Positions 6,139-42,029 of a stretch of DNA of 64,000 bases are shown piece after piece. The DNA comes from Mycobacterium sp. (GTDB lineage Bacteria; Actinomycetota; Actinomycetes; Mycobacteriales; Mycobacteriaceae). The stretch is taken from NCBI GenBank assembly GCA_040398865.1, contig JBBATG010000001.1:12201-76200 (forward strand). Direction: 5' to 3'. A program made the position numbers and the translations under genes. Below the pieces are notes generated by a model. It did no database searches, was not told the origin of the DNA, and saw only the letters and a list, made by a program, of their open reading frames with translations. The first letter of the stretch is position 1. Each line of letters starts with the position of its first letter.

Positions 6139-8816
<2,678 letters not shown>

Positions 8817-10540: not shown

Positions 10541-10638
10541 AGAAACGACTCTAGGTCCGGATCGCCCGAGTTTGCCAGCTGTGCCGCGACCGGTCAGAAA
10601 CGCGTAAGACCGAGTCGCCCGCGTCATACCGTAGGCGG

Positions 10639-11712
10639 ATGAGCACCGACGATGACCTCTCCCGGGCCTTTCACGAACTGCTCGACGAGCTCAAGTCGGT
10701 GGAGCGCAAGTTCCTCGCCGCCGACCCGCCGCTGACCGAACCCGACGTCCTCGACTCCTACCGGCTGTTGCTGAGCCTGCTGCACGTCGCGGTGAACGCC
10801 TACGTGTGGGGCGATACCGACAATCCGCGTTTCGTCGACGTCATCGGCCCCTACCTCAAGTGGGGCGGGGACAACTCGGATGCGTTCTACCAGCTCGCGC
10901 CGATCGCACCCGGCCGGACCTACCGGGTGTGGGGAAACCGCGGCGACTCGGTGTATCTCTCGCTCACCGTCTACGGCGGACCCGATGACGGCCACTACAG
11001 CACCCGGATCGTCGGGACCGTCAACCACCAGTCGCTGGAGTTCGATGACGACGGCAATTTCGAGCTGTTCCTCTCCCCTGACGAGCACCCGGGGACCTGG
11101 CTGCAACTCGAGGCCGACGCGGTGGTCGCCCTGACCCGCGACTACCTCGACGACCCCGGCACCGACCGCCGGGCCACCTGGAGTATCGAATCGGTTGACC
11201 GCCCCGAGCGGCGCCACGACAACCGAGCCGACCTCACCCGACGGCTGCGGGCCGCGCGGACCTGGATCAGTGAGCAGTGCTCGTTCATTCCGGTCCGGAT
11301 CTCCCCGCCCAACGAGATCGCCGAGCCCTACCCCGTCCCGCAGAACGCCTACGGCTGGTCGGCCGCGGACGCCGCCTACGCCATGGGCGCCTACGAACTG
11401 GCCCCCGATGAGGCGCTGGTCATCGACGGCACCTCACCGGAGTGCGTGTTCTGGAACATCTGCCTGTGGAACCCGTTCCTGCACACGTTCAACTACGACT
11501 ACGAGCGGGTCACCCTCAACGGCGCGCATGTGACCTATCGGCGCGACGGCTCCTGGCAGATCGTGGTCAGTGACGCCGACCCGGGGCATCCGAACTGGGT
11601 GTCCACCGCCGGCCGGCGCACCGGTCTGATCTGGCTGCGATGGTTCCTGCCCGCCCAGACCCCGCACCGGCCCGCCTGCCGGGTCGTGAACATCAGCGAG
11701 ATCCCGGCGTGA
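10639..11712 (+). CDS. DUF1214 domain protein (Rv3531c-like)
   Basis: KWGGDNSDAFY, YRVWGNRG, FWNICLWN, PNWVSTAG, WLRW; precedes a sulfotransferase; leaderless (TACCGT 6 nt before ATG). Confidence 0.85.
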   Translation: MSTDDDLSRAFHELLDELKSVERKFLAADPPLTEPDVLDSYRLLLSLLHVAVNAYVWGDTDNPRFVDVIGPYLKWGGDNSDAFYQLAPIAPGRTYRVWGNRGDSVYLSLTVYGGPDDGHYSTRIVGTVNHQSLEFDDDGNFELFLSPDEHPGTWLQLEADAVVALTRDYLDDPGTDRRATWSIESVDRPERRHDNRADLTRRLRAARTWISEQCSFIPVRISPPNEIAEPYPVPQNAYGWSAADAAYAMGAYELAPDEALVIDGTSPECVFWNICLWNPFLHTFNYDYERVTLNGAHVTYRRDGSWQIVVSDADPGHPNWVSTAGRRTGLIWLRWFLPAQTPHRPACRVVNISEIPA

Positions 11713-12956
11713 GCACCGCGCGCCCGGAGCCGGTGCGGATCGACGATCTGGCCCACCCTGTCTATCCGGAGGCCGCGCTGCCGATCCGGGACGGCCTGGC
11801 CGCCTACGGTGCCACCGTGGAGCTGACGCCGGACGCACTGATGGCAGCCGCAGCGGAGCGCACCGGACTGAGCGGCTGGGGCGCACCGGACTTCCGCGAC
11901 CGCCTGGAGTTGCTATGCGGCGCGCTGTGCACGGAAGCGGAACTGTCCGACACCGGAGTCGGCGTCGCGTTCGAGCAACTGGTGGGCAATCTGGTCAACC
12001 GACTGCGGCTGGAGGCACTGATCGCCGCGCATCCGGAGATCGACACCATCCCGATCGAACGGCCGATCATCATCTGCGGGCTTCCGCGCAGCGGCACCAC
12101 GCACCTGCACAACCTGATCGCCGCCGACCCGGCGATGCGCCACCTGCCGTACTGGGAGAGCCTCGAGCCGTTCCCCGCGCCCGATGAAGCGGGCGAGCAG
12201 GCCCGCCGGGAACGCTGCGCCATGGGCCTGGACATGGTCGACGCCTCGATGCCGTATTTCAAGCGGATGCACGAGATGACCGTCGACCACGCGCACGAGG
12301 AGATCCAGCTGCTGGCCAACGACATCTCCGGGATGTTGTTCGAGACCACCTACTACGTGCCCAGCTTCGCCGCCGACTACAAGGCACACGATCAGCGGCC
12401 GTCGTATGCGTACCTCAAACGCCAACTGCGGGCCCTGCAGTGGCTGAGCGGTCGGCAGCGCCGGTGGGTGCTGAAGTCACCGCAGCATCTCGAGCAGTTC
12501 GGTCCGCTTTGCGACACCTTTCCCGACGCCACATTCGTTGTGACACATCGTGATCCGGTCGAGATCATCCGATCTATGGTGACCATGGTGGCCTACAGCG
12601 CCCGGATGGCGTGCGAGCATCCCGACCCGGCGGCGATCGGCCGGTACTGGCTCGGCCGCGCCGAAGATCTGCTCAATGGATGTCTGCGCGACCGCGACGT
12701 GCTGCCCGCCGAGCAGTCCATCGACGTCCGGTTCGACGATTTCGTGGCCGACGAGGACGCCACCCTGGCCGCCATCTACGAGCTGGCCGGCCAGCCCCAC
12801 GATGAGAAGGCACGCACGGCGATGGCGGCGTTCACCGCGCAACACCCGCGCGGCCGGCACGGCGAGGTGCGCTACGACATGGCGAGTCTGGGTCTGGATA
12901 CCGAGGATGTCGCGCGGCGGTTGCGCGCCTACCGGGACCGGTTCATCACCGCTTAG
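11709..12956 (+). CDS. Sulfotransferase family 3 protein (Rv3529c/Rv1691-like), copy 1
   Basis: 5'-PSB loop GLPRSGTTHLH, WVLKSPQH, 3'-PB HRDPVEIIRS; GTGA overlap with DUF1214. Confidence 0.92.
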   Translation: MSTARPEPVRIDDLAHPVYPEAALPIRDGLAAYGATVELTPDALMAAAAERTGLSGWGAPDFRDRLELLCGALCTEAELSDTGVGVAFEQLVGNLVNRLRLEALIAAHPEIDTIPIERPIIICGLPRSGTTHLHNLIAADPAMRHLPYWESLEPFPAPDEAGEQARRERCAMGLDMVDASMPYFKRMHEMTVDHAHEEIQLLANDISGMLFETTYYVPSFAADYKAHDQRPSYAYLKRQLRALQWLSGRQRRWVLKSPQHLEQFGPLCDTFPDATFVVTHRDPVEIIRSMVTMVAYSARMACEHPDPAAIGRYWLGRAEDLLNGCLRDRDVLPAEQSIDVRFDDFVADEDATLAAIYELAGQPHDEKARTAMAAFTAQHPRGRHGEVRYDMASLGLDTEDVARRLRAYRDRFITA

Positions 12957-13978
12957 GCATCTCGACCTGCGCGGACGTCGATCAGTACCTTTCCGCATTC
13001 GCGGCTCTCGCCGAGCAAATCCAGCGCGGCATCGACCGCGTGGAGTGGGAACCGATCGGTGATGAGGCCGGACAGGTCGCGGCGGGTCAGCAGGTCGATG
13101 GCGTCGGCGAAGCGGGCCGGATACTCCATCGACCCGCGAATGGTGATTTCCTTCATCAAGACGTTGATGAAGTTCACCGCCACCGGGTTGTAGTGCAGCG
13201 CCACCACGCTGATCCGTGCGCCGCGGCGAGCGCGGTCGATGATGCCGGTGAGGACTTTGTCCGATCCGGACGCCTCGATGAACGCGTTGGTGGCCGGTGC
13301 CGTGCCATAGGTCAGCGCGACCTCGCCGTGGATTCGCGTCAGTTCCCGCCAGACGCTGCCCGCGGCCGGGTCGATCGTGGTCGCGGCGCCGAGTTGCTCG
13401 GCCAATCCGCGGCGGGTGGCGGACAGGTCGATACCGACGATATCGGTCAGCCCGCGGTCGGCCAGACTGGCAATGGCGGCCAGACCGATCGGGCCGCAGC
13501 CGAACACCGCCACCAGCTCGCCCGGACGCACATCGGCCTGCTCGGCGGCGTGCATCCCGACCGCGACGGGCTCGGCGAGGGCGGCGACATCGAGCGGCAT
13601 ATCGTCGGGAACCGGATACAGGCGTCCGCCGCGGGCGGCGTCGCGAACCAGGACAGCCTCGGCCAGCCCTCCTTCCGGGGACCCGCTCCCGATCCGGCCC
13701 AGGTCATCGTCGCCGGGATGAACCACTACCCGGTCACCCACCTTGGTCCCGGCCACCTCGGCGCCGACCTCCCGCACCACCCCGGCGAACTCGTGGCCCA
13801 GCGGCATCGGCTCGCCGTTGGGGCCGGCCAGCCCGCCCATCGAGATGTAACTCAGGTCGCTGCCGCAGATGCCGCAGGCGTGTACATCGACGATCGCGTC
13901 GCGGGGTCCGCACACCGGAGAGGGCACCGAGTCCACCGAAACCACCCCAGGTGACAGTATGCGAGCCTGTTGAATCAT
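12953..13978 (-). CDS. Zn-dependent alcohol dehydrogenase (MDR), lacking the structural-Zn lobe
   Basis: CGICGSD, GHEFAG, LAEPVAV, FGCGPIG; no 4-Cys cluster. Confidence 0.9.
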   Translation of the reverse strand: MIQQARILSPGVVSVDSVPSPVCGPRDAIVDVHACGICGSDLSYISMGGLAGPNGEPMPLGHEFAGVVREVGAEVAGTKVGDRVVVHPGDDDLGRIGSGSPEGGLAEAVLVRDAARGGRLYPVPDDMPLDVAALAEPVAVGMHAAEQADVRPGELVAVFGCGPIGLAAIASLADRGLTDIVGIDLSATRRGLAEQLGAATTIDPAAGSVWRELTRIHGEVALTYGTAPATNAFIEASGSDKVLTGIIDRARRGARISVVALHYNPVAVNFINVLMKEITIRGSMEYPARFADAIDLLTRRDLSGLITDRFPLHAVDAALDLLGESRECGKVLIDVRAGRDA

Positions 13979-14012
13979 GGGCGCAGACACTATCGGCACG
14001 GAAGGCGGCGTG

Positions 14013-15257
14013 GTGATCAATCTCGATGACCTCACCGACCCGGTGCTGACCGACGTCCAGCGGAAGATCCTCGACTACACCGAGTCGCACCAGGTCGAGT
14101 TCGACCTGGACGCGATGCGCGCCGAGGCGGTGATCGCGGCAGGAGTCGATGACCTCGACGACGACGGCGGTTTCACCACCCGATTGGCCGCGCAGATCAC
14201 CGCCATCGACGCCGATACCGGGTTGCGGCAACTCAGCCGGCGCACCCTGCGCTCCCGGCTGGTCCGGCTCATGCGTAACCGCCTGTCGCTGACCGATCTG
14301 ATCAGGCGCTACCCCGAGATCACCGATATCGAGATCCCCCGGCCGCTGATCGTGGTTGGCATGCCGCGATCGGGCACCACCCATCTGGTCAACCTGCTGG
14401 CCTGCGATCCGCGCCGCCGCGCCCTGCCGTACTGGGAGAGCCAGGAGCCGATCCCGGCCCGCGGACAGGGCCCGGCCCGCTCGGGTGTGGACCCACGGTT
14501 CGCCCGCGCGGCCGCCGAACACGAGGCGATGATGGCCAGCACCCCTCTCGTCGCGGCGATGCACGACCAGTACCCCGAAGCCATCGAGGAGGAGGTCGAA
14601 CTGCTCGACCTCGATCTCGCGTCCTATGTCCTGGAATGGCTTGCCCGGGTACCCGGATGGCGCGACGTCTACTTACGCCTCGACCAGCACCGCCACTACG
14701 CATACCTCAAGACGGTGCTGCAGGCGCTGACATTCCTGCGCGGCCCGCAGACCTGGGTGCTCAAATCCCCACAGCACGCCGAGCAACTCGGTCCGCTGAT
14801 GGCCACCTTCCCGGATGCGACGGTGGCGTTCACCCACCGGGATCCGGTGGCGGTGATCCGTTCGGCGGCCACGATGATGGCCTACTCCGACCGGATGCGG
14901 CGCACCAGCATCGAGCCGGGGTGGCTGATCCGGTACTGGAGCGACCGCATCCACCGACTGCTCAGCGCCTGTGTGCGTGACCGCGACCTGGTGGCGGCCG
15001 AGGCCAGCATCGACATCGGGTTCCATCACCTCAACGGGGGCGAGATGCCGGTCCTCGAGGAGTACTACCGCCGGGCCGGCATCGACATTCCACCGGCCGT
15101 GCAACGGCGGTTCAGCGACTACATCGACTCCAACCGGCGCGGCACCAAGGGGTCTATCCCCTATGACCTGCAGCGCCACTTCGGCGTCACCGCCGAGGAG
15201 GTGCGCGAGCCGTTCGCGTTCTACTTCGACCGCTTCGACGTTCGCCCGGAGAGTTGA
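14013..15257 (+). CDS. Sulfotransferase family 3 protein, copy 2
   Basis: GMPRSGTTHLV, WVLKSPQH, HRDPVAVIRS; RBS GGAAGG 7 nt before GTG 14013. Confidence 0.92.
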   Translation: MINLDDLTDPVLTDVQRKILDYTESHQVEFDLDAMRAEAVIAAGVDDLDDDGGFTTRLAAQITAIDADTGLRQLSRRTLRSRLVRLMRNRLSLTDLIRRYPEITDIEIPRPLIVVGMPRSGTTHLVNLLACDPRRRALPYWESQEPIPARGQGPARSGVDPRFARAAAEHEAMMASTPLVAAMHDQYPEAIEEEVELLDLDLASYVLEWLARVPGWRDVYLRLDQHRHYAYLKTVLQALTFLRGPQTWVLKSPQHAEQLGPLMATFPDATVAFTHRDPVAVIRSAATMMAYSDRMRRTSIEPGWLIRYWSDRIHRLLSACVRDRDLVAAEASIDIGFHHLNGGEMPVLEEYYRRAGIDIPPAVQRRFSDYIDSNRRGTKGSIPYDLQRHFGVTAEEVREPFAFYFDRFDVRPES

Positions 15258-15265
15258 GGATCTGA

Positions 15266-16510
15266 GTGACCGAACCGATCTGGAGAAGCCGCCCCGGCGC
15301 CGACGCCATGGCCCCGGCGTCCGCTGAGCACGCCGAGGAGGTGGCGCCGGGTATCTGGTGCTCCCCCGGCCTCACCAACTCCTACCTGCTGACCACTGCC
15401 GACGGCAGGATCGTCGTCAACACCGGCATGGGATTCGAGTCCGTGGTGCACCGGGCCAACTTCGATGCCGTCAGCACCGACCCGGTGCGCTACATCATCA
15501 TCACCCAGGGCCACTACGACCACGTCGGCGGCATCGACACGCTGCGCGACGAGAAGACCGCGGTTGTGGCGCAGGCGAACTGGCAATCCTGGCGCGACGA
15601 CAACGAACGCCTCCTGCAGTACCGGATCGCCCGCAGCGCCTTCGCCTTCAGCGGCCGGCTCTCCGAGGGCATCGCCGCCATCGCCCGACGGTTCGGCAAG
15701 AAGCTGCCCGCGCAGAGCGTCGCGACAGCCGACATCACCGTTGAGGACACCCTGACTCTCGAACTCGGCGGCCGCCGGCTGGAACTGATCGCCACCCCGG
15801 GTGGCGAGACCACCGACTCGATGGTGGTATGGCTGCCCGATGAGCGAATCTGTCTGTGCAGCAACACCTTCGGTCCGGCGTTCGGCCACATCCCCAACCT
15901 CGTCACCATGCGGGGTGACCGGTACCGGGACGCACTCAGCGTGATCGACACCATTGAGCGTGTCCGCGCATTGGCGCCGCAGATCCTGCTCACCGGGCAC
16001 TTCGAGCCGATCATCGGCGCCGAGCTCATCGACGCCGAGCTGACCCGGCTCCGTGACGCCGTGGCCTTTATCCACGACCAGACCGTCGCTGGAATGAACG
16101 CCGGCACCGACGTCCGCACGCTGATGGCGGAGATCTCGCTGCCCGAGCACCTGCAGGTCGGCGAGGGTTACGGCAAGGTCTCCTGGGACGTGCGCGCGAT
16201 CTGGGAGAACTACTCCGGCTGGTTTCACCACCGCTCCACCACCGAGCTCTACCCGGTAGGCGCCGATGCCGTCAGCGCCGACCTGGTGGAACTGGCCGGC
16301 GCCGACGCCATCACCGCGCGCGCCCGGCGGCATCTGACCGCCGGGCGGACCCTGCACGCCATTCACTTGGCCGAGACCGTCACCCATGCGCAGGACGGGC
16401 ACGCCGAGGCACGCGCCATACTCCACGAGGCACACCAGCAGCTGCTTGCCGCCAGCGTCAACTTCTGGGAACGGGCGTGGCTCACCGCACAGATCGAGAG
16501 GTACTCATGA
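15266..16510 (+). CDS. Metallo-beta-lactamase fold alkyl/aryl sulfatase-like protein (SdsA/BDS1 type) with dimerisation domain
   Basis: TQGHYDHVGG, TPGGET, NLVTMRGDRYRD, LLTGHFEP, YGKVSWDVRAIWENYSGWF. Confidence 0.8.
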   Translation: MTEPIWRSRPGADAMAPASAEHAEEVAPGIWCSPGLTNSYLLTTADGRIVVNTGMGFESVVHRANFDAVSTDPVRYIIITQGHYDHVGGIDTLRDEKTAVVAQANWQSWRDDNERLLQYRIARSAFAFSGRLSEGIAAIARRFGKKLPAQSVATADITVEDTLTLELGGRRLELIATPGGETTDSMVVWLPDERICLCSNTFGPAFGHIPNLVTMRGDRYRDALSVIDTIERVRALAPQILLTGHFEPIIGAELIDAELTRLRDAVAFIHDQTVAGMNAGTDVRTLMAEISLPEHLQVGEGYGKVSWDVRAIWENYSGWFHHRSTTELYPVGADAVSADLVELAGADAITARARRHLTAGRTLHAIHLAETVTHAQDGHAEARAILHEAHQQLLAASVNFWERAWLTAQIERYS

Positions 16511-17256
16511 CCGCGCGCGCCCAGTTCGACTTCACCGGCACCCAAGCCCTGATCACCGGCGGAACCAGCGGGATCGGCCACGCCATCGCGCTGATCTTCC
16601 GCGACGGCGGCGCCGATGTGACAATCACCGGCACCAAACCGGCCGCTGCCGACTACACCGCCGACCTGTCCGGGATGACCTACCGGCAGCTGGTACTCAC
16701 CGAGCCGGAGTCGGTCGCTGCGCTGGCGGCCGGTATCAGCACGCTCGATGTCCTGGTGAACAACGCCGGCGCCAACTTCCCCGGCGGGCTCGACGAGTCG
16801 GATCCAGACGGCTTCGACGCATCGGTGGCGCTGAACCTGACGGCCCCCTACCGGTTGACCGTCGCGCTGCGTCGAGCGCTCAAGGCCAGCACCGCAGCGG
16901 GTGGGGCGAGCGTGGTGAACCTGGCGTCTATGTCGGCGCTGCGGGCCGTCACTGTCGTCCCCGGCTACAGCGCGGCCAAGGCGGGCATCATCAACCTCAC
17001 CCGCAACCTCGCGGTCAAATGGGCCAAGGACGGTATTCGCGTCAATGCCATCGCCCCCGGCGTCATCGCAACGCCGATGACCGAACCGATGATGGGTATC
17101 CCGTCGATCCTGCAGGCTGAACTGGCGCATGTACCGCTGGGCCGGTTCGGGACCGCGCCGGAAGTGGCATCGGCGGTTGCCTTCCTGTGCACCGAGCAGG
17201 CCAGCTACATCAGCGGAACGACTGTGCTGGTGGACGGCGGCTCGGATTGCGTCTAG
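16507..17256 (+). CDS. Short-chain dehydrogenase/reductase
   Basis: TGGTSGIG, VNNAG, YSAAK; ATGA overlap with the sulfatase-like gene. Confidence 0.92.
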   Translation: MTARAQFDFTGTQALITGGTSGIGHAIALIFRDGGADVTITGTKPAAADYTADLSGMTYRQLVLTEPESVAALAAGISTLDVLVNNAGANFPGGLDESDPDGFDASVALNLTAPYRLTVALRRALKASTAAGGASVVNLASMSALRAVTVVPGYSAAKAGIINLTRNLAVKWAKDGIRVNAIAPGVIATPMTEPMMGIPSILQAELAHVPLGRFGTAPEVASAVAFLCTEQASYISGTTVLVDGGSDCV

Positions 17257-32791: not shown

Positions 32792-34066
32792 ATGTCTGAT
32801 CCGGACCTGCCCCCGGGGTTCGACTTCACCGACCCCGATCTCAACGCCGAGCGTCTGCCCGTCGAGGAGCTCGCCACTCTGCGCCGCACCGCCCCGATCT
32901 GGTGGAATGCCCAACCCGTCGGGGTGGGCGGTTTCGACGACGGCGGTTACTGGGTGGTCACCAAACACAAAGACGTCAAGGAGATCTCGCGGCGCAGCGA
33001 CGTGTTCTCCAGCCTGGAGAAGACCGCCATCCCGAGGTATAAGGACGGCACCGCCGGTCAGCACATAGAACAGGGCAAGTTCGTCCTGCTCAACATGGAC
33101 GCCCCGCATCACACACATCTGCGCAAGATCATCTCTCGCGCCTTCACGCCGCGGGCTATCGAGCAGCTGCGCGAGGAACTGCGCCAGCGCGCCGATGAGA
33201 TCGTCCGGGCCGCCGTGCGCAACGGCTCCGGCGACTTCGTCGAGCAGGTCTCCTGCGAGCTGCCGTTGCAGGCGATCGCCGGGCTGATGGGTGTGCCGCA
33301 GGACGAGCGTAAAAAGCTGTTCGACTGGTCGAACCAGATGGTCGGCGATCAGGACCCGGAGTTCGAAGGCAATGACGCTCTCACCGCCTCGGTCGAGCTG
33401 ATCATGTACGGCATGGCGATGGCCGCAGACCGCGCCGCCAATCCGGGCGACGATCTCGTGACGAAGCTGGTGCAGGCCGACGTCGACGGCCACAAACTCT
33501 CCGACGACGAGTTCGGCTTCTTCGTGATCCTGCTCGCGGTGGCCGGCAACGAGACCACCCGCAATTCCATCACCCACGGCATGGTGGCCTTCACCGAATT
33601 CCCCGAGCAGTGGGAGTTGTACAAGAAACTGCGGCCCGTCACCGCCGTGGACGAGATCGTGCGCTGGGCCACGCCGGTCACCTCCTTCCAGCGAACGGCC
33701 CTGGTCGACACGGAACTGGGGGGTGTCACGATCAAGAAGGGCCAGCGGGTGGTGATGGTCTACCGGTCGGCCAATTTCGACGAAGAGGTGTTTGACGACC
33801 CGTTCGCCTTCAACGTCCTGCGTGACCCCAACCCGCATGTCGGCTTCGGCGGGACCGGCGCGCACTACTGCATCGGGGCCAACCTGGCCCGCATGACCAT
33901 CGACCTGATGTTCAACGCCATCGCGGACCACATGCCCGACCTCACCCCGGTGACGGCGCCGCAGCGGCTGCGGTCCGGCTGGCTCAACGGCATCAAGCAC
34001 TGGGATGTGGACTACACCGGCACCGGCAAATCCACTGTGGCCCATGCCGACACCATCACCGGGTGA
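32792..34066 (+). CDS. cyp125: Cytochrome P450, CYP125 family (steroid C26 monooxygenase-like)
   Basis: LPPGFDFTDPD, LLNMDAPHH, VAGNETT, EIVRW, FGGTGAHYCIG. Confidence 0.85.
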   Translation: MSDPDLPPGFDFTDPDLNAERLPVEELATLRRTAPIWWNAQPVGVGGFDDGGYWVVTKHKDVKEISRRSDVFSSLEKTAIPRYKDGTAGQHIEQGKFVLLNMDAPHHTHLRKIISRAFTPRAIEQLREELRQRADEIVRAAVRNGSGDFVEQVSCELPLQAIAGLMGVPQDERKKLFDWSNQMVGDQDPEFEGNDALTASVELIMYGMAMAADRAANPGDDLVTKLVQADVDGHKLSDDEFGFFVILLAVAGNETTRNSITHGMVAFTEFPEQWELYKKLRPVTAVDEIVRWATPVTSFQRTALVDTELGGVTIKKGQRVVMVYRSANFDEEVFDDPFAFNVLRDPNPHVGFGGTGAHYCIGANLARMTIDLMFNAIADHMPDLTPVTAPQRLRSGWLNGIKHWDVDYTGTGKSTVAHADTITG

Positions 34067-39420: not shown

Positions 39421-40713
39421 ATGGGCATCAAGGCCATCGCAACCCACGTCAACGGCCAAGCACCCCCGCATGTCCCGCTCGCGGACATCAATCTGGGCAC
39501 GCTGGAGTTTTGGGCCCGCGACGATGAGTTCCGCGACGGCGCCTTCGCGACATTGCGCAAAGAGGCGCCGATCAAGTTCTTCCGGGAGATCGAGTTCGAG
39601 GGTTTCGAGGCCGGCGCCGGTCACTGGGCCCTGACGAAGTTCGACGATGTCCATTTCGCCAGTCGGCACCCCGAGATCTTCAGCTCGTACCCCAACATCA
39701 CCATCGCCGACCAGCAGCCCGAGGTCGCCGAATACTTCGGCTCCATGATCGCCCTCGACGATCCCCGCCACGCGCGGCTGCGCAATATCGTCTCGCGCGC
39801 GTTCACACCCAGGGTCGTAGCCCGCACCGAGGAGTACGTCCGCGACCGTGCCCGCCGGTTGGTCTCGGACCTGATCGCCAACCACCCCGACGGCGTCGGT
39901 GAACTGGTGACCGAATTGTCCGGACCGCTGCCATTGCAGGTGATCTGCGACATGATGGGCATCCCCGAGGCCGACCACAAGCAGATCTTCCACTGGACCA
40001 ACGTCATCCTCGGATTCGGCGACCCCGACATCACCACCGATTACGAGGAATTCCTCAAAGTCGCCATGGATATCGGCGCGTACGCCACCGCGCTCGCCGA
40101 GGACCGCCGGTCCAACCCGGGCGACGACCTCACCACCTCGCTGGTCGCCGCTGAGGTGGACGGTGAGCGGCTCACCTCGGCGGAGATCGCCTCTTTCTTC
40201 ATCCTGCTCGCCGTGGCAGGCAACGAGACCACCCGCAACGCGATCAGCCATGGTGTGCTGGCGCTGACCCGCTACCCCGAGCAGCGGGAGATCTGGTGGA
40301 ACGACTTCGAGACCCATACCGCCGGCGCCGTCGAGGAGATCGTGCGGTGGTCGTCGCCGGTGGTCTACATGCGCCGCACCACCACCCGCGACGTCGAGGT
40401 CTCCGGGGTGACGATCCCTGCCGGAGACAAGGTCACCATGTGGTACTGCTCGGCCAACCGCGACGAGGACCGGTTCGTCAACCCGTGGCTCTTCGACGTG
40501 ACCCGCGCGCCGAACGCGCATGTCGGCTTCGGCGGCGGCGGTGTGCACTTCTGTCTCGGCGCCAACCTCGCCCGTCGCGAGATCGCGATCATGTTCGAGG
40601 AACTACGCAACCGGATTCCCGACATCGCCGTGGTGGAGGAGCCGGCCATGCTGTGGTCGGCGTTCATCCATGGCATCAAGAGGCTTCCGGTCAGTTGGAC
40701 GCCGCCCGCCTAG
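39421..40713 (+). CDS. cyp124: Cytochrome P450 CYP124 (methyl-branched lipid omega-hydroxylase)
   Basis: ATHVNG.APP.VPLADI.LG, FSSYPNITI, EYFGSMI.LDDPRH, FGGGGVHFCLG. Confidence 0.9.
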   Translation: MGIKAIATHVNGQAPPHVPLADINLGTLEFWARDDEFRDGAFATLRKEAPIKFFREIEFEGFEAGAGHWALTKFDDVHFASRHPEIFSSYPNITIADQQPEVAEYFGSMIALDDPRHARLRNIVSRAFTPRVVARTEEYVRDRARRLVSDLIANHPDGVGELVTELSGPLPLQVICDMMGIPEADHKQIFHWTNVILGFGDPDITTDYEEFLKVAMDIGAYATALAEDRRSNPGDDLTTSLVAAEVDGERLTSAEIASFFILLAVAGNETTRNAISHGVLALTRYPEQREIWWNDFETHTAGAVEEIVRWSSPVVYMRRTTTRDVEVSGVTIPAGDKVTMWYCSANRDEDRFVNPWLFDVTRAPNAHVGFGGGGVHFCLGANLARREIAIMFEELRNRIPDIAVVEEPAMLWSAFIHGIKRLPVSWTPPA

Positions 40714-40715
40714 CC

Positions 40716-42029
40716 ATGGCAGCGATCAAGGAGCGGCTGCACTGGCTCGCCATGCACGGTGTGGTGCGGTCGGCGGCCACCTGGTCAGCGCGCCGCGGCG
40801 ATCCGCAAGCGCGTCTGCTCATCGACCCCGCGCTGCGCGCCGATCCGATGGCGTTCTATGAAGACCTTCGCCGGCAGGGGCCGCTGGTGCGGGCCCGGGT
40901 CAGCTACCTGACCGTCGACCACGCGGTCGCACACGAACTGCTGCGCTCAGATGATTTCCGGGTGATCTCGATGGGCGCCAGCCTGCCCGGGCCGCTGCGG
41001 CGACTGGAACGGCGCACCCGGACCGATCTGCTGCACCCACTGCTACCGCCGTCCCTGCTGGCCGTCGAACCCCCCGAGCACACCCGCTACCGCAAGACGG
41101 TTTCCTCGGTATTCACCAGTCGCCGGGTCGATACCCTTCGCGACCGCGTAGAGGACACCGCCGATACGCTTCTCGACGGGCTCTCGGGCGAAGAGGGCGT
41201 GCTCGACATCATCGAGCGCTACTGCGCGCAACTGCCGGTCACCGTCATCAGTGAGATCCTCGGCGTACCGGACGCCGATCGCCCGAAGATACTCGAATAC
41301 GGTGAACTCGCCGCTCCCAGTTTGGAGTTCGGGCTCAGCTGGCGTGAGTACCGTAAGGTTCAGCGCGGGCTGGCGGGCTTCAACGACTGGCTGGTTGAGC
41401 ATCTGCAGCGGCTGCGGGACCATCCCGGTGACGATCTGATGAGTCAGCTGATCGCCGCATCAGAGGATGGCGTACGTCTCAACGACATGGAACTGCGCGC
41501 GATCGCGGGCCTAGTTCTCGCCGCCGGTTTCGAGACCACGGTCAACCTGCTCGGCAATGGGATCACCCTTCTGCTGAATCATCCCGAGCAACTCGCCGCG
41601 CTGGTCGCCGATCCGTCACTGTGGCCGAACGCCGTCGAGGAGATCCTCAGGTACGACTCACCGGTACAGCTCACCGCGCGGGTGGCCCGCACCGACACCA
41701 CCGTCGCCCGAACCCCGATCCGGGCCGGGGAACTGGTGGTGATCTACCTCGCCGCAGCCAACCGCGACCCTGCAGTGTTCGAAAATCCGGACCGCTTTGA
41801 TGTGTCCCGGGCCGGGGCCGGCCGGCACCTCGCGTTTTCCGGGGGACGGCACTTCTGCCTCGGTGCGGCGCTCGCCCGCGCGGAGGGCGAGGCCGGGCTG
41901 CGCCGGTTCTTCGACCGCTATCCCGACGTACGGTCCGCCGGGGGCGGCACCCGGCGAACCACCCGGGTGCTGCGGGGCTGGGCGCAACTACCCGTCCGGC
42001 TGGGTTCGGGGTCTCGCCTTCTGCACTGA
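40716..42029 (+). CDS. cyp140: Cytochrome P450 CYP140
   Basis: LHWLAMHGV, LLRSDDFRV, EPPEHTRYRKTV, AAGFETT, FSGGRHFCLG. Confidence 0.88.
   Translation: MAAIKERLHWLAMHGVVRSAATWSARRGDPQARLLIDPALRADPMAFYEDLRRQGPLVRARVSYLTVDHAVAHELLRSDDFRVISMGASLPGPLRRLERRTRTDLLHPLLPPSLLAVEPPEHTRYRKTVSSVFTSRRVDTLRDRVEDTADTLLDGLSGEEGVLDIIERYCAQLPVTVISEILGVPDADRPKILEYGELAAPSLEFGLSWREYRKVQRGLAGFNDWLVEHLQRLRDHPGDDLMSQLIAASEDGVRLNDMELRAIAGLVLAAGFETTVNLLGNGITLLLNHPEQLAALVADPSLWPNAVEEILRYDSPVQLTARVARTDTTVARTPIRAGELVVIYLAAANRDPAVFENPDRFDVSRAGAGRHLAFSGGRHFCLGAALARAEGEAGLRRFFDRYPDVRSAGGGTRRTTRVLRGWAQLPVRLGSGSRLLH

Follow-up and report, generated by a model that had tools for sequence, protein, structure and literature searches.

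Closest described systems

The type III sulfatases are established as C-O-cleaving, inverting enzymes (PMC3920027). Their characterised alkylsulfatase members, SdsA1 of P. aeruginosa, Pisa1, SdsAP and YjcS, combine an MBL catalytic domain with a helical dimerisation domain, an architecture that recurs in the MBL-fold protein considered here, and no coupling or fusion of these enzymes to a sulfotransferase has been reported. Sulfation making a leaving group in biosynthesis is known from the curacin and olefin synthases, in the form of the CurM ST-TE. Plant sulfotransferase-driven scaffold remodelling is a further instance of sulfation as a maker of leaving groups (PMC12929733). The locus described below may be likened to both in that sulfation from PAPS would precede the departure of sulfate from carbon, the sulfotransferase being fused to or clustered with the downstream catalyst; by the same analogy it differs in the partner, which is a thioesterase or a spontaneous step in those systems and an MBL-fold sulfatase homologue here.

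The nearest described sulfotransferases are Stf1 (Rv3529c; PDB 2zq5) and M. avium Stf9 (2z6v), which resemble the two enzymes of the present locus (ST1 and ST2) in length, in belonging to the Sulfotransfer_3 fold family and in carrying the PAPS motifs PR(S/T)GTT and RDP..S. The E-values, 1e-28 to 1e-39, mark the two as paralogues, not orthologues, of Stf1 and Stf9: ST1 falls in a group linked to DUF1214 and ST2 in one linked to the MBL. We know of no acceptor for any of these enzymes. In the cholesterol catabolic region of M. tuberculosis, the neighbourhood Rv3529c-Rv3530c-Rv3531c comprises a sulfotransferase homologue with genes for an oxidoreductase and for a hypothetical protein beside it (PMC6429209), and an SDR-DUF1214-sulfotransferase order is seen in the Mycolicibacterium loci L088 and L089.

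Two neighbouring modules

The window analysed is a stretch of 64,000 nucleotides from a freshwater mycobacterium, in which an earlier note, made from the sequence alone, had described a self-contained six-gene cluster for sulfation and desulfation. All six open reading frames were found at the positions it gave, with domains assigned by Pfam and with the GTGA overlap, 8-bp gap and ATGA overlap that it had read, but the genes form two neighbouring, separable modules rather than one cluster. Module A (10639-12956, forward strand) consists of a gene for a DUF1214-family protein of 357 aa (10639-11712; PF06742, 41.5 bits against a cutoff of 25, E 2e-10) followed by ST1, a Stf-type PAPS sulfotransferase of 415 aa (11709-12956; Sulfotransfer_3, E 3e-39), which starts with a GTG that overlaps, in GTGA (11709-11712), with the stop codon of the DUF1214 gene. 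Module B (12953-17256) includes a Zn-dependent MDR alcohol dehydrogenase (Zn-ADH) on the reverse strand (12953-13978; 341 aa from the ATG at 13978; ADH_N and ADH_zinc_N) and a forward-strand core of three genes: ST2, also a Stf-type PAPS sulfotransferase, of 426 aa (13977-15257; Sulfotransfer_3, E 2e-34); the MBL-fold protein with alkylsulfatase dimerisation domain, of 414 aa (15266-16510; Lactamase_B and Alkyl_sulf_dimr); and a classical SDR oxidoreductase of 249 aa with TGGTSGIG and YSAAK motifs (16507-17256; adh_short_C2, E 3e-50). The gap of 8 bp (15258-15265) lies between ST2 and the MBL gene, and the SDR ATG overlaps the MBL stop codon in ATGA (16507-16510). Two junctions can be added from the sequence: the stop codons of the convergent ST1 and ADH genes overlap (12953-12956), and the start codons of the divergent ADH and ST2 genes overlap in CATG (13976-13979). 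In this start region a promoter-like site on the forward strand (13951-13978; GTGACA, a 16-nt spacer and AATCAT) matches the consensus weakly, and the scan returned two such sites against 0.7 expected by chance.

Module A is an independent, translationally coupled pair, and only in this lineage does it appear to have been inserted alongside module B. Residues 13-354 of the DUF1214 protein match PDB 6ans (E 1.8e-35), and the protein appears cytoplasmic, since inspection revealed no N-terminal signal-like segment. Its orthologues (65-95% identity) are widespread in Mycolicibacterium, and in every context examined a sulfotransferase gene follows directly with a 4-bp overlap. ST1 matches 2zq5 (E 2.6e-39) and 2z6v (E 7.6e-35), clusters in alignment with the DUF1214-linked sulfotransferases and is a paralogue of ST2 at 40% identity; the PRSGTT and HRDPV..IRS PAPS motifs are kept in both, as had been claimed. 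The co-occurrence analysis that the earlier note proposed found ST2-MBL-SDR(-ADH) co-conserved, but DUF1214-ST1 joins it in only two of 82 loci and is absent from the other 80, the full six-gene juxtaposition being confined to the closest relatives of the window (L001 and L012). The pair also occurs elsewhere without any MBL, and the sister lineages L023 and L026 carry Trx-ADH-ST2-MBL-SDR without it, a sign that a separate module has been inserted or lost. In the window it is flanked by katG, Trx/DsbD, an Rv1906c-like gene and modA. The suggested parallel with Rv3529c-Rv3531c is supported by the Mycolicibacterium arrangement and by the homology of ST1 to Stf1, but the window pair lacks a neighbouring SDR that belongs to it and stands outside any steroid catabolic region.

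Conservation and fusion of the ST2-MBL pair

In module B of the Mycobacteriaceae, the gene directly upstream of that for the MBL is ST2 in 77 of 79 loci, and the one directly downstream is the SDR in 67 of 80; the recurrence of ST2-MBL-SDR(-ADH) across about 80 genomes of this family and in distant metagenomic lineages indicates more than a chance arrangement. In 14 distant relatives from soil and peat metagenomes (40-57% identity, at least 5 kb of flank), the gene order is shuffled; within 5 kb of the MBL gene, 10 have a sulfotransferase, 11 a homologous Zn-ADH and 12 an SDR. The grouping of sulfotransferase, sulfatase, MDR and SDR thus stands. Divergent IclR or TetR regulators adjoin the operon in many genomes, VOC and luciferase-like genes co-occur with it along with dehydrogenases, and the Zn-ADH is a variable partner, its place as second oxidoreductase being taken in most slow-growing mycobacteria by a luciferase-like enzyme.

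Furthermore, at least 28 protein clusters unite the two activities in one polypeptide, 12 as MBL-ST (about 781-853 aa) and 16 as MBL-SCP2-ST (about 945-1032 aa). Their sources are independent assemblies from JGI, NCBI, ENA and Logan, and some are from Myxococcota, including Polyangiales, Myxococcales and Sandaracinaceae MAGs. ST2, which matches 2zq5 (E 2.5e-32), groups in alignment with the sulfotransferase domains of these fusions and shares with them a C-terminal FYFDRF motif. The near-constant adjacency and the fusions mark ST2 and the MBL sulfatase-like gene, on sequence grounds, as a genuine functional unit. A literature search found no paper on such a pairing of sulfotransferase and MBL sulfatase-like protein, and ST2-MBL represents a widely conserved, uncharacterised gene pair.

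Fold and active site of the MBL protein

The MBL protein matches SdsA1 (2cfu) with E 9e-20 and is only 20-25% identical to the characterised alkylsulfatases. Its AF2 model (pLDDT 92.9) has SdsA1, Pisa1, SdsAP and YjcS as top Foldseek matches (TMq 0.79-0.83), and the predicted fold is that of SdsA1/Pisa1 (TM about 0.8). Unlike these enzymes it has no C-terminal SCP2-like domain, and some 85 N-terminal residues are missing, among them the secretion signal region; it shows no evident signal peptide. Residue mapping reveals the replacement of two of the seven zinc ligands, His169 by Gln81 and the bridging Glu299/Asp310 by Asn200, and of the general-acid His317 of Pisa1 by Pro210. The ligands H83, D85, H86, E181 and H245 (equivalent to H171, D173, H174, E280 and H344) are retained, as are the predicted sulfate binders N211, T214, R216 and R221 (N318, T321, R323 and R328 of Pisa1/SdsA1), with both arginines invariant in 127 of 127 sequences. 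The Gln/Asn and His/Asp pairs covary perfectly over 125 family members (70 Q/N, 53 H/D, none mixed, two odd). Among the type III sulfatase-like proteins, the window protein thus belongs to a divergent "Q/N" clade, as does every one of the fusions with a sulfotransferase. These replacements suggest that the site may be mononuclear, may support other chemistry or, conceivably, may only bind a ligand. Hence, the description of the protein as an SdsA-type sulfatase is borne out by fold and sulfate-binding residues but not by the SCP2 domain, the two ligands or the general acid, and inverting hydrolysis cannot be assumed.

Sulfate as a possible leaving group

We give about even odds (roughly 0.5) to module B being a cytoplasmic sulfate activation unit beside the separable module A. 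ST2 would use PAPS to sulfate a hydroxyl on a small or hydrophobic alcohol, and the MBL protein would hold the sulfate ester in its retained Asn/Thr/Arg/Arg pocket and cut the C-O bond, expelling sulfate. The outcome would be set by the nucleophile: water would give stereoinversion of a secondary alcohol, elimination an alkene, and otherwise a substituted or cyclised product might form. The SDR would supply or consume the alcohol or ketone around these steps, a role that the Zn-ADH or luciferase-like enzyme might share. That the pair is expected to add and then remove sulfate suggests such a temporary leaving group, and the lack of a visible signal peptide on the MBL protein is in keeping with a substrate sulfated from PAPS in the cytoplasm. 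The fusions are consistent with sulfation followed by C-O cleavage; to this extent the proposal of a sulfotransferase acting together with a sulfatase is supported. A fused enzyme that only restored the starting alcohol would be a futile cycle burning PAPS, which favours the leaving-group reading. Antagonistic enzymes are also found fused in other systems, however, and a fusion by itself is therefore no proof that the two steps are sequential. Against this reading, two dehydrogenases alone could achieve stereoinversion more cheaply, the machinery established for inverting hydrolysis is not intact, and some Q/N-clade genes (L172 and one or two of the distant metagenomic loci) have no ST, ADH or SDR neighbour.

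It is unlikely that ST2 and the MBL protein are instead antagonists, the latter regenerating the alcohol so that together they set the steady-state amount of one metabolite, a sulfated signalling molecule or envelope lipid, with the fusions as bifunctional switches. Bifunctional enzymes of opposing activity are known, e.g., the RelA/SpoT-type synthetase-hydrolases, and the tight linkage, the fusions and the adjoining regulators would agree with such a system; however, the fusions contain no regulatory or sensor domain, the steady presence of dehydrogenases and of VOC and luciferase-like genes looks metabolic rather than regulatory, and, as type III sulfatases cleave C-O, the product from a chiral carbinol would differ from its substrate. 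Less likely again is the catabolism or scavenging of exogenous organosulfates, wherein the MBL protein would hydrolyse an imported (sec-)alkyl sulfate and the SDR and ADH oxidise the alcohol, the sulfotransferase being unrelated or accessory. The nearest characterised relatives, SdsA1, SdsAP and Pisa1, are indeed catabolic, IclR and TetR regulators typically accompany catabolic operons, genes of the TauD family occur close to two related loci, and one relative (P0255) is fused to a GMC alcohol oxidase. Yet P0255 falls in the canonical H/D clade, whereas the MBLs fused or linked to sulfotransferases are of the Q/N clade with altered metal ligands; moreover, there is neither a visible signal peptide nor a conserved transporter nearby, and a PAPS-type sulfotransferase as the most constant neighbour, even a fused one, is left unexplained. 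The least probable reading, that of the earlier note, has all six genes working in one pathway on a shared hydroxylated lipid or steroid, which DUF1214 would present. The adjacency in the window, L001 and L012, the kinship of ST1 and ST2, the SCP2 domains within the myxobacterial fusions and the existence of SDR-DUF1214-ST arrangements speak for it, but the two modules mostly occur apart.

As to the substrate class, the SCP2 domains of the myxobacterial fusions and lipid-type neighbours in two loci hint faintly at a lipid or steroid, and the claim of such a substrate was overstated. The Zn-ADH has as its closest solved structures sorbitol dehydrogenase (1pl6, E 1.5e-35) and (R,R)-butanediol dehydrogenase (6ie0) and belongs to the polyol/secondary-alcohol dehydrogenase branch; every NCBIfam equivalog match fell under its cutoff. 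In locus L086, an ADH 61% identical to it shares an operon with ST-MBL-SDR.

Organization of the locus

The window has a GC content of about 68%, as befits high-GC mycobacterial DNA, and its sequence was found in 20 of 23 DNA runs from freshwater, estuary and drinking-water metagenomes (24 runs listed). The nearest public locus, L001, comes from a Mycobacterium sp. MAG and shares 91–96% protein identity over the six cluster genes. All six open reading frames lie where the earlier note had placed them, and Pfam confirmed each of its domain calls: a DUF1214 gene (10639–11712, + strand), the sulfotransferase ST1 (11709–12956, +), a Zn-dependent alcohol dehydrogenase (Zn-ADH; 12953–13978, −), a second sulfotransferase, ST2 (13977–15257, +), a metallo-beta-lactamase-fold protein with an alkylsulfatase dimerization domain (MBL; 15266–16510, +) and a short-chain dehydrogenase (SDR; 16507–17256, +). 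None of the six proteins has an equivalog-level NCBIfam name, and the flanks are made up of housekeeping genes, namely katG, a DsbD/thioredoxin-like gene, a gene for an Rv1906c-like secreted protein, modA, yaaA and cinA.

The GTGA overlap, 8-bp gap and ATGA overlap that had been described can all be read directly at the junctions; additionally, the stop codons of ST1 and the ADH overlap, and the start codons of the ADH and ST2 overlap back-to-back as CATG (13976–13979). Together with a promoter-like hexamer pair at 13951–13978, the end of which falls on the ST2 ATG, the overlapping starts suggest leaderless or tightly interlocked divergent transcription. As the one RNA run among the 24 listed held none of the window sequence, and hence no evidence of co-expression, operon structure is argued here from overlaps and synteny.

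Two modules with distinct distributions

A scan with the MBL protein, using one genome per species, recovered at least 524 relatives, of which the best 80 loci were kept; all 80 are from Mycobacteriaceae and include both fast and slow growers. These, along with two loci fetched by protein look-up, gave 82 loci that were compared by tblastn with the window proteins. Of the 79 loci with enough sequence, 77 have ST2 as the gene just before the MBL (median gap 18 nt), and of 80 loci, 67 have the SDR as the gene just after it. The remaining 13 cleanly lack the SDR; there a VOC (Glyoxalase_4) or luciferase-like gene directly follows the MBL, with both found in 11 of them. VOC and luciferase-like oxidoreductase genes come after the operon in 48 of the 82 loci (e.g., at 12029–12427 and 12496–13437 in L067, with 47 other mycobacterial loci alike), most slow-growing mycobacteria having the order ST2-MBL-SDR-VOC(Glyoxalase_4)-luciferase-like oxidoreductase; both genes are absent from the window. 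A Zn-ADH adjoins the module in 13 of the 82 loci, it and the luciferase-like enzyme being almost mutually exclusive, and a divergent IclR regulator adjoins the operon in about 23.

The DUF1214-ST1 pair has a different distribution, being found beside ST2-MBL in just two of the 82 loci (L001 and L012), while the sister lineages L023 and L026 display the order Trx-ADH-ST2-MBL-SDR without it. Orthologues of the DUF1214 protein (65–95% identity) are common in Mycolicibacterium, and in every context examined an ST1-like sulfotransferase gene comes next, overlapping by 4 bp, while no MBL lies in the vicinity. This overlapping adjacency was seen in the window, L001, L012 and L088–L091; an SDR, as would be expected in an Rv3529c–Rv3531c-type neighborhood of sulfotransferase, oxidoreductase and putative DUF1214 genes, directly precedes the pair solely in L088 and L089 (SDR-DUF1214-ST), and L090 has TetR-DUF1214-ST. 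Around the pair in the window, a search for insertion scars or flanking repeats yielded only short matches consistent with chance. Thus, the self-contained six-gene cluster envisaged by the earlier note gives way to two modules, and the co-occurrence it expected was borne out for ST2 with the MBL and largely for the SDR, but not for DUF1214-ST1.

The DUF1214 protein itself is a clear family member (PF06742, 41.5 bits; cutoff 25) and matches the structure 6ans with an E-value of 1.8e-35 across residues 13–354. In the literature searched, just three papers mentioned the family, without a function for it, and no paper linked it with sulfotransferases; Rv3529c and Rv3531c figured there in gene lists only.

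The sulfotransferases and oxidoreductases

Both sulfotransferases are recovered by the Sulfotransfer_3 model (135.9 bits for ST1 and 120.4 bits for ST2; cutoff 27) and match the solved enzymes Stf1/Rv3529c (2zq5) and Stf9 (2z6v) with E-values of 1e-28 to 3e-39; we know of no acceptor for these closest solved homologues. PR(S/T)GTT, the 5′-phosphosulfate loop, and RDP..S, the 3′-phosphate motif, are the PAPS-binding motifs of sulfotransferases. As had been noticed earlier, ST1 and ST2 each possess them, as PRSGTT and HRDPV..IRS, and they are conserved in the orthologues and in the sulfotransferase domains of the fusions discussed below. The two proteins are 40% identical to each other, and in the alignment ST1 goes with the DUF1214-linked enzymes and ST2 with the MBL-linked ones.

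The Zn-ADH (ADH_N and ADH_zinc_N) has sorbitol, butanediol and threonine dehydrogenases as its nearest relatives, but all its NCBIfam equivalog matches are far below cutoff, and hence no specific substrate can be assigned. The SDR (adh_short_C2, E 3e-50) contains the TGGTSGIG cofactor motif and the YSAAK catalytic motif. Given an ADH from the sorbitol/butanediol/threonine branch on one hand and SCP2 domains in the fusions on the other, the polarity of the substrate could go either way.

An alkylsulfatase fold with a remodelled metal site

The MBL protein, with its Lactamase_B and Alkyl_sulf_dimr domains, had been called an SdsA-type sulfatase. Its AF2 model (pLDDT 92.9) retrieves type III sulfatases as all of the top 13 Foldseek matches (TMq 0.79–0.83, 20–25% identity), and the protein aligns with SdsA1 (E 9e-20) up to SdsA1 residue 515 of 658. 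It thus resembles the characterized alkylsulfatases SdsA1, Pisa1, SdsAP and YjcS in the catalytic and dimerization domains; however, it lacks about 85 N-terminal residues of SdsA1, with no visible signal-like segment, as well as the C-terminal SCP2-like substrate-recruitment domain, since the chain stops at residue 414, past the dimerization domain, with no Pfam match to SCP2 or Alkyl_sulf_C. SCP2 is present in the related MBL-SCP2-ST fusions. A separate observation concerns relatives of the H/D clade (see below), among which proteins of about 680–735 aa (P0192, P0205, P0209, P0214–P0217 and similar) combine the MBL and dimerization domains with about 340 N-terminal residues that have no Pfam match.

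The zinc ligands of type III alkylsulfatases comprise HxHxDH, Glu280, the bridging Glu299 (Asp in Pisa1) and His344 (PMC5426288). In the window protein the motif reads QGHYDH: the equivalent of H169 is Gln81 and that of the bridging Glu299 (Asp310 in Pisa1) is Asn200, whereas the five other ligands of the seven are kept. His317 of Pisa1 serves as the general acid protonating the leaving sulfate (PMC3920027); its counterpart is Pro210, with proline in 122 of 127 family sequences, and a clade-specific histidine, His208, lies two residues upstream. In contrast, the Pisa1 sulfate binders Asn318, Thr321, Arg323 and Arg328 are kept as N211, T214, R216 and R221, and this Asn/Thr/Arg/Arg motif is retained throughout the family, with both arginines invariant in all 127 sequences. 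Among 125 members the two altered ligand positions covary perfectly: 70 have Q/N and 53 H/D, mixed pairs do not occur, and the other two sequences are odd; every sulfotransferase fusion has Q/N.

The earlier designation therefore stands for the fold, the dimerization domain and the sulfate-binding residues, but not for SCP2, a complete binuclear zinc site or the general-acid histidine. Judging from the aligned residues, the capacity to bind a sulfate ester has very probably been retained, and the metal site is remodelled; we infer that it contains one metal, at Asp85/His86/His245. Action on PAP or PAPS was considered and set aside in view of the retained alkylsulfatase sulfate pocket and dimerization domain, and of SCP2 in the fusions.

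Fusions and distant relatives

An exhaustive, profile-free search with the MBL against 1.8 billion representatives returned 306 clusters at E ≤ 1e-30, several of them far longer than 414 aa. Pfam resolved one representative (P0121) as MBL-dimerization-Sulfotransfer_3 and two (P0128, P0134) as MBL-dimerization-SCP2-Sulfotransfer_3, and a follow-up search raised these to 12 MBL-ST and 16 MBL-SCP2-ST clusters. Their contigs, of up to 254 kb, belong to assemblies from JGI, NCBI, ENA and Logan, some of them labelled as MAGs of Polyangiales, Myxococcales or Sandaracinaceae. The sequences are clean across both domains, and the MBL precedes the ST; because the mycobacterial genes run in the opposite order, read-through of that operon cannot have produced the fusions. 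Another protein, P0296 (1374 aa, from a single ENA contig), joins a partial alkylsulfatase dimerization domain and Sulfotransfer_3 to a type I (formylglycine-type) sulfatase domain, and may be a further ST-sulfatase fusion or an assembly artefact.

Apparent MBL-SDR and ST-MBL-SDR fusions (P0305, P0318, P0298), all from one ENA project, were rejected: P0318 and P0298 have out-of-frame stretches, the contigs contain many split genes, and these proteins are probably indel/frameshift artefacts of long-read assembly. From their loci the gene order alone was used, TetR-ST-MBL-SDR-VOC-ADH, in which the ADH is 61% identical to that of the window.

A metagenome scan seeded with a four-sequence alignment of distant family members found MBLs 39–57% identical to the window protein, surrounded by ST, Zn-ADH and SDR homologues in shuffled orders. 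Where the flank extended for 5 kb or more (n = 14), an ST was present in 10 loci, an ADH in 11 and an SDR in 12; for flanks of 1.5 kb or more (n = 26) the counts were 15, 17 and 19, and 2 loci had no ST, ADH or SDR. The linkage has exceptions, in that one myxobacterial standalone MBL likewise has none of these neighbors. The only recurring neighbors are VOC (Glyoxalase_4), luciferase-like oxidoreductase, Zn-ADH and SDR; TauD, P450, FA_hydroxylase and SDR-GFO genes beside the fusions do not recur elsewhere and furnish no clue to the substrate. TauD-family (type II alkylsulfatase-like) dioxygenase genes occur near an MBL-ST fusion in L084 (6859–7974) and near an ST-MBL operon in L086 (1394–2230); the latter has relatives in three mycobacterial and three metagenome loci, the former none.

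A proposed two-step reaction and its rivals

The most economical reading of the above is a cytoplasmic sequential unit, in which ST2 would use PAPS to sulfate an alcohol, and the MBL would then expel the sulfate by C-O cleavage, a chemistry established for its fold. The outcome would be set by the nucleophile: water would give inversion, as in the epimerization proposed earlier, an internal nucleophile a cyclized product, and proton loss an alkene. The SDR and a second oxidoreductase, either Zn-ADH or the luciferase-like enzyme, could perform an adjacent alcohol/ketone step. More specifically, ST2 and the Q/N-clade MBL may constitute a previously undescribed PAPS-spending catalyst, of two enzymes here and a single polypeptide elsewhere, that esterifies an unactivated alcohol with sulfate and then displaces the sulfate at carbon ("Mitsunobu-type" stereoinversion, or elimination/substitution) at a remodelled, probably mononuclear metal site, and that is widespread in Mycobacteriaceae, Myxococcota and soil bacteria. 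We hold this tentatively, with a probability of about 0.4.

Its rivals, each judged less likely, are writer/eraser homeostasis, with sulfate put on by one enzyme and taken off by the other, organosulfate catabolism and a single six-gene pathway. The six-gene pathway would account for the contiguity of the genes in the window, L001 and L012, but it has to contend with DUF1214-ST1 residing elsewhere without an MBL. The obligate pairing or fusion of ST and sulfatase fold across phyla, with the concerted change of two metal ligands, points to sulfate serving briefly as a leaving group in everyday metabolism of bacteria, as the sequential ST2-MBL unit would have it.

To our knowledge, the Stf-type sulfotransferases of bacteria and their type III sulfatases are both familiar groups, most of whose members have no known substrate. 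They have so far been handled apart, one under sulfated-metabolite biosynthesis and the other under alkyl sulfate scavenging, and we found no description of their coupling in the literature searched. The component families are already known; what seems to be new is that they are coupled and fused, and that the metal site has a Q/N variant. If the proposal is true, it would define a new reaction type for unactivated alcohols, provide a function for several hundred mycobacterial genes annotated as "MBL fold metallo-hydrolase" or "sulfotransferase", and make a self-contained module for stereoinversion or dehydration available to biocatalysis. From the comparisons, ST2-MBL emerges as the minimal unit, the natural fusions are handy single-protein constructs, and the adjacent IclR and TetR regulators might serve as bait for finding the substrate.

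Other features of the window and compared loci

Many split and frameshifted genes were observed in L083, L086 and L087 (ENA ERZ250395xx contigs), the source of the rejected MBL-SDR and ST-MBL-SDR fusions. A 19-nt motif, GGTCAGAAACGCGTAAGAC, at 10603–10621 of the window, also occurs in L001, L012 and L023, with a variant in L026, either just upstream of the thioredoxin-like gene or inside its 5′ end, and is kept at the DNA level even where the neighboring gene differs between genomes. Translation of the thioredoxin-like gene probably starts further downstream, at the Met of MKTHVIRML..., in which case the motif could be a 5′-UTR or regulatory element. The katG frame as listed (6534–8816) opens at a TTG with a Cys/Arg/Ser-rich N-terminal extension of about 30–50 residues, and its true start probably lies downstream. 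Finally, tblastn with a P450 query from L086 picked out three cytochrome P450-like coding regions in the window, at 32825–33940, 39544–40623 and 41067–42005.
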